A DNA stretch of 64,000 bases. It comes from Eledone cirrhosa. Lineage: Eukaryota. How positions within the stretch are numbered: position 1 is the first letter of the stretch; each line of letters begins with the position of its first letter. Positions 1,742 to 55,577 of the stretch are shown in pieces. The stretch covers positions 101,308,001-101,372,000 of the forward strand of contig OZ024742.1 in assembly GCA_964016885.1 (NCBI GenBank), in the 5' to 3' direction. The translations under genes were made by a program, and so were the position numbers. The notes beneath the pieces are model-generated. The model was given only the letters and a program-made list of their open reading frames with translations, was not told the origin of the DNA and searched no databases.

Positions 1742-1830
1742 TCCCGACTGTACAGTTTCGCTGGTCACTATGCAAAAATGTTATCATAGATATGTAACAT
1801 TGTTGTGAGGTAAGCCAGCTTATCAAGAGA
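1742..1830 (-). ncRNA. Decayed type I hammerhead ribozyme
   Basis: Minus strand: TCTC-TTGATAA (CTGATGA with 2 transitions)-GCTGG...CCAGC (stem II)-GAAA-CTGTACAG (palindromic stem III)-TC-GGGA. Confidence 0.65.
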
Positions 1831-2120
1831 GCACCTCAGGGAAGAGCCCTAACTACATACGTCCGTAGCAGGAGGGCTCAAGCGACATGCAAAAGTACAT
1901 GAACTCCAACTACAGCCGGCTATTCCCAGTGAATGTTTTGGTTGCCGACTCTGTGCAAGACATTTTAGATCATTGGCTGGGCTAAAAAGCCACATTCGAT
2001 CGCAGCGCTGTTAGTTGCTATCGTGTGTGTGTGTGTATAGATATGTTTATGTGTGTGCGTGTGTGTGTATATGTATATGTATATTATTATCGTTGTTGTT
2101 GTCGTTATTATTATTGTTGT

Positions 2121-2301
2121 TGGATTGGCAGTATCGGTGGAGGGTCGGACACCATGCTTTCCAGCGTAGTTACGTCCCTTTACGATCTGAGTTCAAATCC
2201 CGCCGAGGTTGACTTTGCCTTTCATCCTTACGGGGTCGATAAAATAAAGTACCAGTAATGCACTGGGTAATTGCTGGCCTTGTGCCTAAAGTAGAAACAG
2301 T
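2121..2301 (+). mobile_element. tRNA-derived SINE with Meta-like central domain (near full length)
   Basis: B-box GAGTTCAAATCCC, then GCCTTTCATCCTTACGGGGTCGATAAAATAAAGTACCAG, ending in a (TTA)n tail; many other copies in the window. Confidence 0.85.
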
Positions 2302-2799
2302 TATTATTATTGTTGTTATTATTATTATTATTATTATTGTTATTAATGTATATGTATGTATATATATATATGTGTATATATATATATATATATATATGTA
2401 TGTGTGTGTATATATATATATATATATATATATATATATATATTTTTTTTTTTTATTTTATTTCATTTTTTTTTTTCCCAAGTGCAATGGCCATACTCGA
2501 TAACGAGGGGGTAGCCATCATCATCATCATATATGTATGATTATGTGTATATATATATATATATGCATGTGTGTGTGTGTGTGTTTGTGTATTTGTGTGT
2601 ATGAATAAAAATATATATCAAAAATGAAAAAATTAGAATACAGTAAAAATAGTAAGTAAGGGGGTGTTATAAAGTAAAACAATAAAGATAAAAATGAATA
2701 TACAAATGTATATTTATATCTGTACGTATATGTGTGTATGTTTTTACTCAAAACTCCGATAAACGCGGTACTCTGAGAAAGAGAAGGGAGTAGAAAGTG

Positions 2800-3182
2800 C
2801 AGAGTAGAAGAGAGAGGGGAACAGAAAAATAAAGAGAGAGAATGTCTATAGGAGGGAAACAGCGACAGAAAGAAAGAGACAAAGAAAAAAGGGGAAGAGA
2901 GAGAGAGAGAAGGCTGTATGAGAGAAGGGACTGGCAAAAAGAGAGAGAAAGAAGAGGCTGTGTGAGAGGGGAAAGAAAGAGAGAGAATGTCTATAGGAGG
3001 GAAACAGCGACAGAAAGAAAGAGACAAAAAAGTAAGCGGAATGGAGAGAGAGAGAGAGAGAGAGAGAGAGAGAGAGAGAGAGAGAGAGAGAGAGAGAGAG
3101 AGAGATGGCTATGTGAGAGAAGGGACTGGCAAAAAGAGAAAGAAAAAAGAGTCTGTGTGAGAGGGGAAAGAAAGAGAGAGTG
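2800..3182. repeat. GA-rich tandem duplication (~150-bp unit x ~2) with (GA)n
   Basis: GAATGTCTATAGGAGGGAAACAGCGACAGAAAG and GAGAAGGGACTGGCAAAAAGAG each occur twice. Confidence 0.85.
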
Positions 3183-3354
3183 AGACAGTAAGTAACCACA
3201 TGTGAGAAGAGAAGCAGACGACAATATAAAATATTAAACACGATATTAGAAAAATATTTTTGTAAATATGACAATATTTTATATATGCATGCATAGATAA
3301 ATACATACATATGTTTACAGGTATATATATATATGTATTTTATATATACATACA

Positions 3355-3699
3355 TCATCATCATCATCATCATCATTTTACGTCCGCTTTTCCCTGCTTG
3401 CAAGGGTGGGACGGGAACTGATTCTGGCTTGATTTCTACAGCTGGATGCCCTTCCTAACACCAACCTCATTTACAGTGAGTGCTGGGTGCTTTTTTGCCG
3501 TGGCACCTCCACGACCTCTTTGCAGTGGAATGATATGGACACCAGTCCCTATCATCTCATTTCTACAGCTGAGTAAACTGGAGCAATGTGAAATAAAGTG
3601 TCTTGCTCAAGGAAACAACACATCACCCGGTCTGAGAATTGAACTCACAACCTTTCAATTGCAAGGCCAATGCTCTAACCACTAAGCCATGTGCCTCCA
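3355..3699 (-). mobile_element. Full-length tRNA/CORE SINE with RTE-derived 3' tail and (GAT)n end, flanked by a ~47-bp direct repeat
   Basis: Head TGGAGGCACATGGCTTAGTGGTTAGAGC...GAGTTCAATTCTC; CORE-like CCTTGAGCAAGACACTTTATTTCAC...CAGTTTACTCAGCTGTAGAAATG; tail identical to the RTE at 49321-49361; direct repeat 3288-3334 / 3698-3744. Confidence 0.85.
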
Positions 3700-50577: not shown

Positions 50578-50635
50578 ATACCTGATGATATCACCGGATT
50601 CATACGGAACCCGGTCATTGAAAGGATCATAGTAT
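50578..50635 (+). ncRNA. Minimal type I hammerhead ribozyme (right arm; stem III T->G)
   Basis: ATAC-CTGATGA-...-GAAA-GGATCA-TA-GTAT-AATAAA. Confidence 0.75.
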
Positions 50636-50687
50636 AATAAACCTTTCAAGGATTTACACAAATCCAGCCTCCTGTCATTTCATTATA

Positions 50688-53600
50688 TATTATATATATA
50701 TATATTATATATATTATATATATATATATTATATATATTATATATATATATATTATATATATTATATATATATATATTATATATATTATATATATATATA
50801 TTATATATATTATATATATTATATATATATATATTATATATATATATATATTATATATATATATATTATATATATATATATATTATATATATATATATAT
50901 ATATATATATATATTATATATATATATATATATATATATATTATATATATATATATATATATATATATTATATATATATATATATATATATATATTATAT
51001 ATATATATATTATATATATATATTATATATATATATATATATATATATATTATATATATATATATTATATATATATATATTATATATATATATATATATA
51101 TATATATATATATATTATATATATATATATTATATATATATATATTATATATATATTATATATATATATATATATATTATATATTATATATTATATATAT
51201 ATATTATATATATATATATTATATATATATATATTATATATATATATATTATATATATATATATTATATATATATTATATTATATATATATATATTATAT
51301 ATATATATATATTATATATATATATATTATATATATATATATTATATATATATATTATATATATATATATTATATATATATATATATATTATATATATAT
51401 ATATATATATATATATTATATATATATATATTATATATATATATATATATATATATATATATATTATATATATTATATATATATATATTATATATATTAT
51501 ATATATATATATATATATATTATATATATATATATATATTATATATATATATATTATATATATTATATATATATATATATATATATTATATATATATATA
51601 TATATTATATATATATATATATATTATATATATATATATATATATATATATTATATATATTATATATATATATATATATATATTATATATATATATATAT
51701 ATTATATATATATATATATATTATATATATATATATATATTATATATATATATATTATATATATATATATATATATATATATTATATATATATATATATT
51801 ATATATATATATATATATTATATATATATATATATATATTATATATAGTATATATATTATATATATATATATATATATTAATATATTATATATATATATA
51901 TATATTATATATATATATATATATATTATATATATATATATATTATATATATATATATATATATTATATATATATATATATATTATATATATATATATAT
52001 ATTATATATATATATATATATTATATATATATATATATATTATATATATATTATATATATATATATATATTATATATATATATATATATTNNNNNNNNNN
52101 NNNNNNNNNNNNNNNNNNNNNNNNNNNNNNNNNNNNNNNNNNNNNNNNNNNNNNNNNNNNNNNNNNNNNNNNNNNNNNNNNNNNNNNNNNNNNNNNNNNN
52201 NNNNNNNNNNNNNNNNNNNNNNNNNNNNNNNNNNNNNNNNNNNNNNNNNNNNNNNNNNNNNNNNNNNNNNNNNNNNNNNNNNNNNNNNNNATATATATTA
52301 TATATAATATATATATATATATATATAATATATATATATATATATAATATATATAATATATATATATATATAATATATATATATATATAATATATATATA
52401 TATAATATATATATATAATATATATAATATATATATATATATATATATATATATTATATATATATATATTATATATATATATAATATAATATATATATAT
52501 ATATTATATATATATATTATATATATATTATATTATATATATATATATATATATATATATATATATATTATATATATTATATATATATATATATATATAT
52601 ATATATATATTATATATATATATTATATATATATATTATATATATATATATATATATTATATATATATATATATATATATATATATATTATATATATATA
52701 TATATATATTATATATATATATATATATATTATATATATATATATATATTATAATATATATATATATATTATATATATATTATATTATATATATATATAT
52801 TATATATATATATATATTATATATATTATATATATATTATATATATTATATATATATATATATATATTATATATATTATATATATATTATATATATTATA
52901 TATATATATATATATATTATATATATATATATATATTATATATATATTATATATATATATATATATTATATATATATATATATATTATATATATATATAT
53001 ATTATATATATATATATATATTATATATATATATATATATTATATATATATTATATATATATATATATTATATATATATATATATATATATATTATATAT
53101 ATATATATTATATATATATATTATATATATATATTATATATATTATATATATATATTATATATATATATATATTATATATATATATTATATATATATATA
53201 TATATATTATATATATATATATATATTATATATATATATATATATATTATATATATATATATATATTATATATATATATATATTATATATATATATATAT
53301 TATATATATATATATATTATATATATATATTATATATATATATTATATATATATATATATTATATATATATATATATTATATATATATATATATATATTA
53401 TATATATATATATATATTATATATATATTATATATATATATATATTATATATATATATATATATATTATATATATATATATATATATTATATATATATAT
53501 ATATATTATATATATATTATATTATATATATATATATTATATATATATATATATATATTATATATATATATATATATATTATATATATATATATATATTA

Positions 53601-55490
53601 TATATATATATATATATATTATATATATATATAATATATATATTATATATATTATATATATATATTATATATATATATAATATATATATATATTATATAT
53701 ATATATAATATATATATATATATATATTATATATATATTATATATATATATATTATATATATATTATATATATATATATTATATATATATATATATATAT
53801 ATTATATTATATATATATTATATATATATATATTATATAATATATATATATATATTATATTATATATATATTATATATATATATATATATATATTATATA
53901 TATATATATTATATATATATTATATATATATTATATATATATATATTATATATATATATATATATATATTATATTATATATATATATATTATATATATAT
54001 ATATATATATATATATATTATATTATATATATATTATATATATATATTATATATATATTATATATATATATTATATTATATATATATTATATATATATTA
54101 TATATATTATATATATATATATATATATATATTATATTATATATATATTATATATATATATATATATATATATATTATATTATATATATATTATATATAT
54201 ATATATATATATATATTATATTATATATATATTATATATATATTATATATATATATATATATATTATATTATATATATATTATATATATATTATATATAT
54301 ATATATTATATATATATATATTATATATATATTATATATATATATATTATATATATATATATTATATATATATATATTATATATATATTATATATATATA
54401 TTATATATATATTATATTATATATATATTATATATATATTATATATATATATATATATATATATTATATATATATATATTATATATATATATATTATATA
54501 TATATTATATATATATATATTATATATATATATATTATATTATATATATATTATATATATATATATTATATATATATATATTATATATATATATATTATA
54601 TATATATATATTATATATATATATATATATTATATATATATTATATATATATATATTATATATATATTATATATATATATATTATATTATATATATATTA
54701 TATATATATATATTATATATATATTATATATATATATATTATATTATATATATTATATATATATATATTATATATATATATATTATATATATATATATAT
54801 TATATATATATATATATATTATATATATATATATATATATATATATTATATATATATATATATATATTATATTATATATATATATATTATATTATATATA
54901 TTATATTATATATATTATATTATATTATATATATATATATATATTATATATATATATATATTATATTATATATATATTATATTATATTATATATATTATA
55001 TTATATATATTATATTATATTATATATATATATATATATTATATATATATATATATATTATATTATATATATATATATTATATTATATATATTATATTAT
55101 ATATATTATATTATATATATATATATATTATATTATATTATATTATATTATATTATATATATATATATATTATATTATATATATATATATTTATATTATA
55201 TTATATTATATTATATTATATAATATAATATAATATATATAATATAATATATATATATATATAATATATATATATATATAATATAATATATATATATAAT
55301 ATAATATATATATTATATTATATTATATATATATATTATATTATATATATATATATATTATATATATATATATATTATATTATATATATATATATATTAT
55401 ATTATATATATATTATATTATATTATATATATATTATATTATATTATATATATATATATATATATATATATTATATTATATATAATATAA
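50688..55490. repeat. Degenerate (TA)n array spanning the assembly gap
   Basis: A/T alternation with doubled T or A. Confidence 0.95.
52091..52290. other. Assembly gap (200 N)
   Basis: Run of N. Confidence 1.
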
Positions 55491-55531
55491 TAAATAACAA
55501 AGAACGCCTATAGCATATGCATGTCTTTACT

Positions 55532-55577
55532 TGCTAACATTGTTTCATCCGCACTATAAGTGGGACTCATCAGAGCA
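55532..55577 (-). ncRNA. Minimal type I hammerhead ribozyme
   Basis: TGCT-CTGATGA-GTCCCACT-TAT-AGTGCGGAT-GAAA-CAATG-TT-AGCA. Confidence 0.82.

Follow-up and report, generated by a model that had tools for sequence, protein, structure and literature searches.

Hammerhead motifs beside TA repeats in an Eledone cirrhosa contig: likely 3′ ends of seven repeat families, two of them from Penelope-like elements

Features of the window

The window analysed here is a 64,000-nucleotide stretch of Eledone cirrhosa DNA (assembly GCA_964016885.1, contig OZ024742.1, positions 101,308,001 to 101,372,000 of the forward strand). It contains nine sites described as hammerhead ribozyme motifs, which belong to seven repeat families (F1, F2, F34, F5, F6, F78 and F9; F34 and F78 each contribute a pair of sites). 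Two of the families, F9 and F34, are the pseudo-long terminal repeat (pLTR) ends of Penelope-like elements (PLEs). The nine motifs are very likely the 3′ ends of seven families lodged in TA repeats, probably inserted there by PLE target-primed reverse transcription. The elements and tracts concerned are as follows, with positions counted from the first letter of the window.

1631..1691, (AT)30 tract: abuts the F1 3′ end, 51 nt past the motif
1692..1870, minus strand, F1 copy: repeat 3′ end, cut off about 40 nt upstream of motif 1742-1830, whose helix III has 2 bp and a palindromic loop UGUACA
25245..25691, plus strand, F2 copy: motif 25319-25386 with a 16-bp deletion
25692..25774, (AT)41 tract: F2 3′ end from the left, long 3′ end of the F34 inverted arm from the right
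25775..26228 (at least), minus strand, F34 inverted left arm: motif 25958-26028 with UUGAGUG; long end, TA at +184
26558..28114, plus strand, remnant of an open reading frame (ORF) of a PLE, Hydra-type by its motifs: C-terminal part of the reverse transcriptase (RT) and GIY-YIG nuclease
28687..28808, plus strand, F34 right arm 3′ end: motif 28687-28757 with CUGAGUG; short end, (TA)n from 28809
30502..31565, plus strand, F5 element: minimal type I hammerhead of canonical form at 31357-31423, with 8 bp in helix I, 3+6 bp in helix II and AUAUGUAU as helix III; long 3′ end
31566..31585, (AT)10 tract: F5 and F6 3′ ends converge on it from opposite sides
31586..32463, minus strand, F6 element, 3′ part: hammerhead with a canonical core at 31683-31742, with 7 bp in helix I, 9 bp in helix II following an A/A non-pair, and ACCACUGGU as helix III
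34696..34760, minus strand, F6 continuation: directly follows the 32463 sequence in three other copies
50210..50443, minus strand, F78 left arm: hammerhead at 50386-50443, loop UGAUCA; long end, TA at +177
50578..50690, plus strand, F78 right arm: hammerhead at 50578-50635; short end, giant TA tract from +56
50691..55471, A/T-only (TA)n blocks, 4.8 kb: N gap at 52091-52290; the F78 (+) and F9 (−) 3′ ends face the tract
55472..55890, minus strand, F9 inverted arm: last 408 bp of the pLTR, hammerhead at 55532-55577; 3′ end meets the giant TA tract
55883..57109, plus strand, F9 internal part in opposite orientation: last 60 ORF codons (55892-56071) and 3′ untranslated region

Cores of the nine motifs

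The sequences at all nine coordinates agree with the preliminary description, which had called every one of them a hammerhead. That name suits five sites, which are intact; three others have cores that are non-canonical throughout their families, and one is a deletion copy. The intact sites are those of F5 (31357-31423, +), F6 (31683-31742, −), F9 (55532-55577, −) and the F78 pair (50386-50443, −, and 50578-50635, +), where the CUGANGA box, the GAAA box and helices I, II and III are all present. Both boxes are kept in essentially all copies of these four families (10-12 loci aligned per family). Apart from these five sites, the CUGANGA box is also found in the window F2 copy (25319-25386, +). 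This copy is the single exception among the nine sites to the presence of a GAAA box and a cleavage-site H after U16.1, its 16-bp deletion having taken the 3′ strand of helix II together with GAAA.

The search descriptor for type I hammerheads asked for 4 bp or more in each of helices I and II, for the CUGANGA and GAA boxes, for pairing of 15.1 with 16.1, and for H17. Relatives of the window F2 copy have an intact type I hammerhead of 84 nt with GUUCC/GGAAC as helix II, and 10 descriptor matches of this type were found in 11 F2 loci outside the window. Helix II of the F78 pair contains a U/U non-pair at its base and a C/C non-pair inside, and the pair failed the descriptor with one mismatch allowed; a sister copy was accepted with two mismatches, a looser setting than the one compared with chance below.

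In F1 (1742-1830, −) the core reads CUUGAUAAG instead of CUGAUGAG, and the same is true of 14 of 14 other aligned copies. Of 14 other aligned F34 copies, 13 have UUGAGUG as the core and one has UUCAGUG, with canonical CUGANGA in none; the T-to-C change in the window copy at 28687 gives CUGAGUG, in which positions 8 and 9 are still wrong. All that remains of the motif in F1 and the F34 pair is the GAAA box, the helix I 3′ strand and a helix III that is self-complementary. The surroundings of the F1 and F34 motifs, out to about 200-300 nt, contain no CUGANGA box, and an exact genome search for a canonical-core F1 relative (CTGATGAGCTGG...CCAGCGAAAC) gave 0 matches. CUGAGGU was considered as an alternative F1 core and rejected by eye, as it leaves a helix II of just 3 bp. 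F1 and the F34 pair thus lack a canonical core, and for them the hammerhead label draws only on their position and the conserved 3′ half.

Excess over chance and structural support

With no mismatch in helix II the descriptor matches the window twice; with one mismatch it matches three times, at 31357-31423 (+), 31683-31742 (−) and 55532-55577 (−). Such motifs had been expected to outnumber those in shuffled sequence, and they do: the three matches compare with a mean of 0.185 in 200 dinucleotide shuffles within 1-kb blocks, one of which reached three. When decoy cores were searched on the real sequence, none of 539 reached three and the maximum was two. Permuted hammerheads (type SGC) gave 0 matches in the window against a decoy mean of 0.03. 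The neighbouring 100,113 bp hold eight descriptor clusters against a decoy mean of 0.27, six of them with TA 42-296 nt downstream. The sampled loci of the seven families likewise contain many further hammerheads of other families, including relatives of F5 that have helix I and the core in common and differ in the sequence of helix II.

These relatives supply a covariation test, which covers the F5 superfamily; the remaining families are too uniform. Across 15 distinct variants, 120 of 150 helix II cells are paired over the first ten positions, whereas shuffling the partners gave a mean of 97.4 and a maximum of 112 (1000 shuffles). A-U, G-C and G.U alternate at the paired positions, and position 4 is a constant non-pair. 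The helix III 8-mer is self-complementary in 14 of the 15 variants (for instance ATATGTAT, ATATATAT and ATGCGCAT), and in the window motifs, too, stem III is minimal or palindromic as the preliminary description had it. Folding gave a more mixed picture. The minimum free energy fold of a single F5 motif reproduced helices I and II; those of F6, F78 and F9 were not clean. Cofolding favoured dimers by 3.6-9.6 kcal/mol, a hammerhead dimer not being specifically shown. A hairpin between the hammerhead and the short end is present, with z of only -0.1 to -3.6 in eight stretches, and is unconvincing.

Seven repeat families

The seven families are indeed unrelated to one another: blastn (word size 7, E ≤ 0.01), applied to the sequence between the 3′ end and a point 200 nt upstream of the motif, found similarity only within the two pairs. 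First-look candidates in the 3.0-Gb genome number 763 for F1, 532 for F2, 942 for F34, 1166 for F5, 910 for F6, 38 for F78 and 1099 for F9. Among the best 38-40 candidates scored per family search, identity to the window copy is mostly 95-99%, with 80-85% for F2 and 85-100% for F78. All families combine a variable 5′ truncation with one or two fixed 3′ ends abutting (TA)n, and six of the seven occur as head-to-head pairs; F2, which has one end class, is the exception.

Tandem arrays of any of the seven families are absent from the window and from 82 sampled loci, where the copies are single arms or divergent pairs. Many distinct families of PLEs or retrozymes had been proposed for this genome. 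The first half of that proposal is upheld, in the form of many distinct PLEs and PLE-like repeats; of retrozymes in the strict sense, with tandem arrays that give circular RNA, the window and these loci show no sign.

F2 and F5 are also found together at a second place in the genome (L049+L013; G000:C4:5469001-5475201), with order and orientation unchanged and about 3 kb between them. In the window (25245-31471) the distance is 6 kb and the F34 element stands in the interval. Collinearity of the two places was considered and rejected, there being no homology beyond the elements themselves.

Penelope-like open reading frames

A full F9 unit is found at locus L083, where it reads (TA)n, a 5′-truncated inverted copy (40-4222), a pLTR with hammerhead (4484-5304), an ORF of 873 amino acids, a second pLTR with hammerhead (9006-9815) and (TA)n again. 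The two pLTRs are 97.8% alike. The pLTR is 821 bp long with the hammerhead about 90 nt before its end, the unit measures 4,522 bp between successive pLTR starts, and 1.8 kb separate the end of the ORF from the hammerhead. The 873-residue product is a telomerase-like reverse transcriptase with a C-terminal GIY-YIG nuclease, judging from its predicted structure: the AF2 model (pLDDT 78.2, pTM 0.76) has the telomerase reverse transcriptases 6zdq, 7lma and 3du5 as its top Foldseek matches (E 3e-9 to 9e-9). Its homologues (129) carry the precomputed families PF26215 and PF28514, and its Atlas neighbours carry RVT_1 and GIY-YIG. The motifs RWR82, DKT165, YRDD, CNCRRASGC732, VY...YIG, CNLC830, E836, N849 and CPH858 can be read along the protein. 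YRDD is invariant in 28 of 28 homologues.

A profile search found PLE ORF remnants at two places in the window. The first, 26558-28114 (+), consists of four open pieces that cover profile positions 270-705 of 707, reads CNCHLPETC, YYIG, CRLC..E and CNH, and ends 573 bp upstream of an F34 motif. The second, 55880-56071 (+), belongs to F9. Genome-wide, a query with the nuclease domain gave 63,252 first-look candidates; the 150 of these that were scored are 90-100% identical, many in open frames of 844-873 amino acids.

Three motifs had been placed in or beside Neptune-type ORFs. Three do stand beside the two PLE ORF remnants; the Neptune label fails. The Neptune set, as given in PMC8557442, comprises a CX2-5CxxC linker and a CCHH motif with two Cys in the GIY-YIG core, whereas the linker here reads CxCX5C. 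No conserved Cys pair lies inside the GIY-YIG core of the F9 ORF and its 28 homologues or of the window ORF; position 755 in this core is Cys in the F9 ORF copy and Ala in 21 of the 28 homologues. According to the same source, the Hydra clade is marked by RW(K/R), DKT, CxCX5C, CxxC and CxH, and it has no core Cys pair. The F9 and F34 ORFs thus carry the Hydra-clade rather than the Neptune set of motifs. Each Hydra motif is kept in 21-28 of 28 homologues, and the K of RWK in only 16 of 28.

The plus-strand F9 copy of the window (within 55883-57540) halts at 57109, exactly where the 3′ pLTR would be expected to start. It gives way to about 430 bp of unrelated DNA, which includes a tandem duplication of some 78 bp, and then to a giant TA tract. 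Elsewhere, at L128:2101-4425 (−), an ORF of 775 amino acids matches Pfam GIY-YIG (27.8 bits) and RVT_1 (27.1 bits), and it therefore belongs to a different PLE clade from F9 and F34. It has its own hammerhead and TA tracts upstream.

Families without a coding part

Unlike F9 and F34, the families F1, F2, F5, F6 and F78 show no PLE ORF of their own in 56 loci extended by 1.5 kb on each side. The sole profile match in these loci, at the window's F2 locus, is the start of the F34 ORF. Thirteen upstream stretches of 8 kb contain no contiguous same-strand PLE ORF; two same-strand PLE ORFs do occur there, each with TA tracts or an inverted arm intervening between it and the arm of the family. These are the ORFs at L125 and L128, which were considered as the coding parts of F6 and F78 and rejected on account of the intervening tracts or arm. 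The five families are therefore probably non-autonomous, no ORF having been tied to them.

They could instead be strongly 5′-truncated autonomous PLEs whose full-length members are unsampled. In support of this alternative, the 5′ extent varies widely among copies (40-818 nt upstream for F1, 61-313 for F2 and 49-607 for F78), F5 and F6 reach further upstream than initially measured, and long untranslated tails do occur, as the F9 unit with its ORF stopping well ahead of the hammerhead illustrates. The 56 loci and 13 upstream stretches argue the other way, and truncation of autonomous elements is in our view unlikely, though it deserves a place among the explanations.

The coding part of F6 was also sought in the LINE-type RT at 32714-34410 (−). 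This is instead a nested insertion, because 32463 runs straight into 34696 in three other F6 copies. The inserted fragment (32464-34695, −; GC 0.58) matches Pfam RVT_1 at 33968-34410 and zf-RVT within 32714-33964.

TA tracts at the element ends

The association with TA repeats noted in the preliminary description is borne out in both distance and direction. All nine sites have (TA)≥5 within 51-306 bp downstream, as against a fraction of 0.274 for random non-TA positions, and the downstream tract is nearer than the upstream one at eight of the nine. Independent copies of each family repeat the offset. TA begins after the motif at +50-55 in F1 (8 of 12 F1 loci), at about +300 in F2, at +50 or +183 in F34, at +44 or about +140 in F5, at +29 or about +100 in F6, at +53 or +195 in F78, and at +42/+56 or +137 in F9. 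Among 75 copies outside the window, TA lies within 400 bp downstream in 70 and upstream in 44, with a background of 0.30. The 5′-truncated ends often abut TA directly as well, and 3′ ends of different families share one tract in two places, F2 with the F34 left arm (25692-25774) and F5 with F6 (31566-31585).

These observations also bear on whether the elements enter TA tracts or make them. Under the second explanation (TA)n would be a tail added at the 3′ end, comparable to the simple-repeat tails that certain non-LTR retrotransposons carry. The near universality of TA at 3′ ends and its lower frequency upstream are what such tails would give; head-to-head pairs place 3′ ends on both sides, and in the window there are element ends with multi-kb TA tracts between them. 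However, 5′-truncated single arms sit directly on TA (L074, L042, L040 and L046), unrelated families converge on one short tract in the two cases just named, and published PLE work takes the TA association as an insertion bias (PMC8557442). TA tails made by the elements are improbable on this evidence, and insertion into existing TA repeats is the preferred reading.

Multi-kb tracts of A and T only occupy 46300-49300, 50691-55471 and 57546-59860, with element 3′ ends facing them. Their GC content is 0.000-0.008 in most 1-kb bins, and they consist of (TA)n blocks with periodic interruptions. Near-perfect long hairpins surround TA cores at 45655-45724 and 14394-14480. They resemble microRNAs in Rfam at scores far below gathering (54.7 vs 97 bits and 49.4 vs 83 bits) and are probably fold-back repeats.

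Head-to-head pairs and integration

In divergent pairs with both ends measurable, one arm has a short end and the other a long end in 22 of 23 cases. Two duplicate loci are left out of this count, as are four pairs in which TA is missing from one side or both. Single arms have the short end in 30 of 46 cases, from which chance pairing would yield about 46% mixed pairs by our own arithmetic. The long end of F9 is the sequence that follows the upstream pLTR, L083 40-134 corresponding to 5304-5398.

Identical, inverted, TA-flanked outer ends are also a feature expected of terminal inverted repeats, so the pairs could be those of TA-targeting DNA transposons or miniature inverted-repeat transposable elements, with the motifs as chance hairpins in AT-rich DNA, and the failure of Rfam to recognise a hammerhead would suit this. 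Yet many copies are single arms, the inner junctions vary while the outer ends are fixed, and paired arms end at different points in nearly every pair. The F9 and F34 arms run on into the RT/GIY-YIG ORF, motif counts exceed both shuffles and decoys, and helix II covaries. A DNA transposon origin is thus hardly credible.

The patterns would be accommodated by insertion of PLE type. A PLE nuclease would cut TA repeats, and RT would start at fixed internal sites of the RNA, 29-55 nt (short) or about 100-300 nt (long) past the hammerhead, so that each motif would point to a TA tract at constant distance. F1, F2, F5, F6 and F78 are probably passengers without a coding part of their own, copied in trans. 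The prediction for the minimal hammerheads, given their short helix I, long helix II and self-complementary helix III, is that they cleave only as dimers, if they cleave at all. Spread seems not to depend on cleavage, since F1 and F34, whose cores are broken, multiplied to roughly a thousand young copies.

A PLE of the anole offers the closest experimental background. In that study (PMC11167929), the protein cuts and extends both DNA strands, and RT starts at two internal RNA sites, just past the hammerhead and the ORF start, the stretch between both sites being the "tail". Hammerhead mutants inserted equally well; that F1 and F34 spread despite their broken cores agrees with cleavage being unneeded for insertion. 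We tentatively propose that each integration uses two different internal RT start sites, one per broken DNA end, that ribozyme catalysis is dispensable in vivo, and that the asymmetry of the ends is built into the Penelope integration complex; the proposal is plausible, though we stop short of calling it probable. Under it, the arms of a mirror pair would end at different fixed points because of the two start sites. The short-plus-long rule adds something to the anole work, because that work saw no start-site difference between strands in vitro.

Several points weigh against reading the nine motifs as PLE-type 3′ ends of TA-lodged families. A canonical core is missing from F1 and from both F34 sites, three of the nine. 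The Rfam hammerhead models match none of the nine, and on the window as a whole Rfam gave no match at gathering score and 137 matches at E ≤ 10, none to a hammerhead family. This miss weighs little, because minimal PLE hammerheads are almost without helix III. Pfam (including RVT_1), NCBIfam and PDB sequence searches miss the F9 ORF. The Hydra assignment draws on motifs rather than a tree, and the F9 unit, at 4.5 kb, exceeds the "<3 kb" given for Hydra elements. Ribozyme activity, mobilisation in trans and TA targeting, finally, are what we infer: self-cleavage is a predicted activity, TA as the insertion target is suggested by the flanks, and movement in trans is put forward for the five families to which no ORF is tied.

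Comparison with known elements

PLE hammerheads, according to PMC4209133, have a long helix II, a short helix I, an extra nucleotide after A9 and a palindromic helix III, and are presumed to act as dimers with low activity in vitro. The likeness to the motifs described here is close. Helix I has 4-8 bp, helix II is long with a non-pair at its base, helix III or loop 3 is short and self-complementary, and many families with compensatory changes occur per genome within the flanking repeats of PLEs (PMC4209133). The differences from that account are that the 10.1-11.1 pair here is often not G-C (A/A in F6, U/U in F78, G.U in F5 and F9) and that two abundant families, F1 and F34, have non-canonical 5′ core boxes; the motifs here are known from sequence.

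Elements of the Hydra clade, as described in PMC8557442, share with those of the window the RWK-like motif, DKT in place of DKG, CxCX5C, and CxxC and CxH around conserved E and N. They also share canonical hammerheads, (TA)n insertion, the lack of a conserved Cys pair in the GIY-YIG core, pLTRs, the 5′-truncated inverted copy and a tail at one end. Tails here are about 72-170 bp long as against 30-40 bp there, and the F34 family here is without a canonical hammerhead (PMC8557442).

The anole element belongs to the Poseidon clade. As in the families described here, its hammerhead lies just ahead of the ORF start and it has two fixed internal 3′ ends; priming by both DNA strands fits the head-to-head pairs (PMC11167929). 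Paired arms differ from each other here (22 of 23 pairs), the clade is different, and the target there is AT-rich DNA, not (TA)n tracts (PMC11167929). Metazoan non-LTR retrozymes are likewise non-coding repeats with type I hammerheads and have been proposed as non-autonomous derivatives of PLE pLTRs (PMC7229834; 10.64898/2026.07.22.740005). In contrast to these, the copies in the window and at the sampled loci are single arms or inverted pairs and form no tandem arrays.

PLE hammerheads, (TA)n targeting by the Hydra clade, inverted copies and tails are published biology, applied here to one genome. On the reading preferred here, a large part of the anonymous sequence next to TA microsatellites can be explained as Penelope-type ends, as sampled in 100 kb of neighbouring DNA, and the clade label changes from Neptune to Hydra. 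Two abundant families with broken cores provide natural material on whether transposition needs the hammerhead, and the pairs provide material on the origin of head-to-head copies with unequal tails. Annotation based on Rfam and Pfam should be treated with caution, since these overlook both the ribozymes and the ORF.

Other features of the window

Fragments of Helitron-type ORFs lie at 7905-8477 (+), 15448-16395 (−) and 23864-24166 (−), with matches to a PIF1-like helicase (E 4.5e-21), a weak Helitron_like_N and the Pif1 2B domain. An open frame of 294 amino acids with a PHD finger (49327-50208, −; E 2e-6) is situated between a giant TA tract and the F78 left arm. The first 528 bp of the window (1-528) are a 166-bp satellite in 3.2 copies with 92% identity and a 28-bp sub-repeat.

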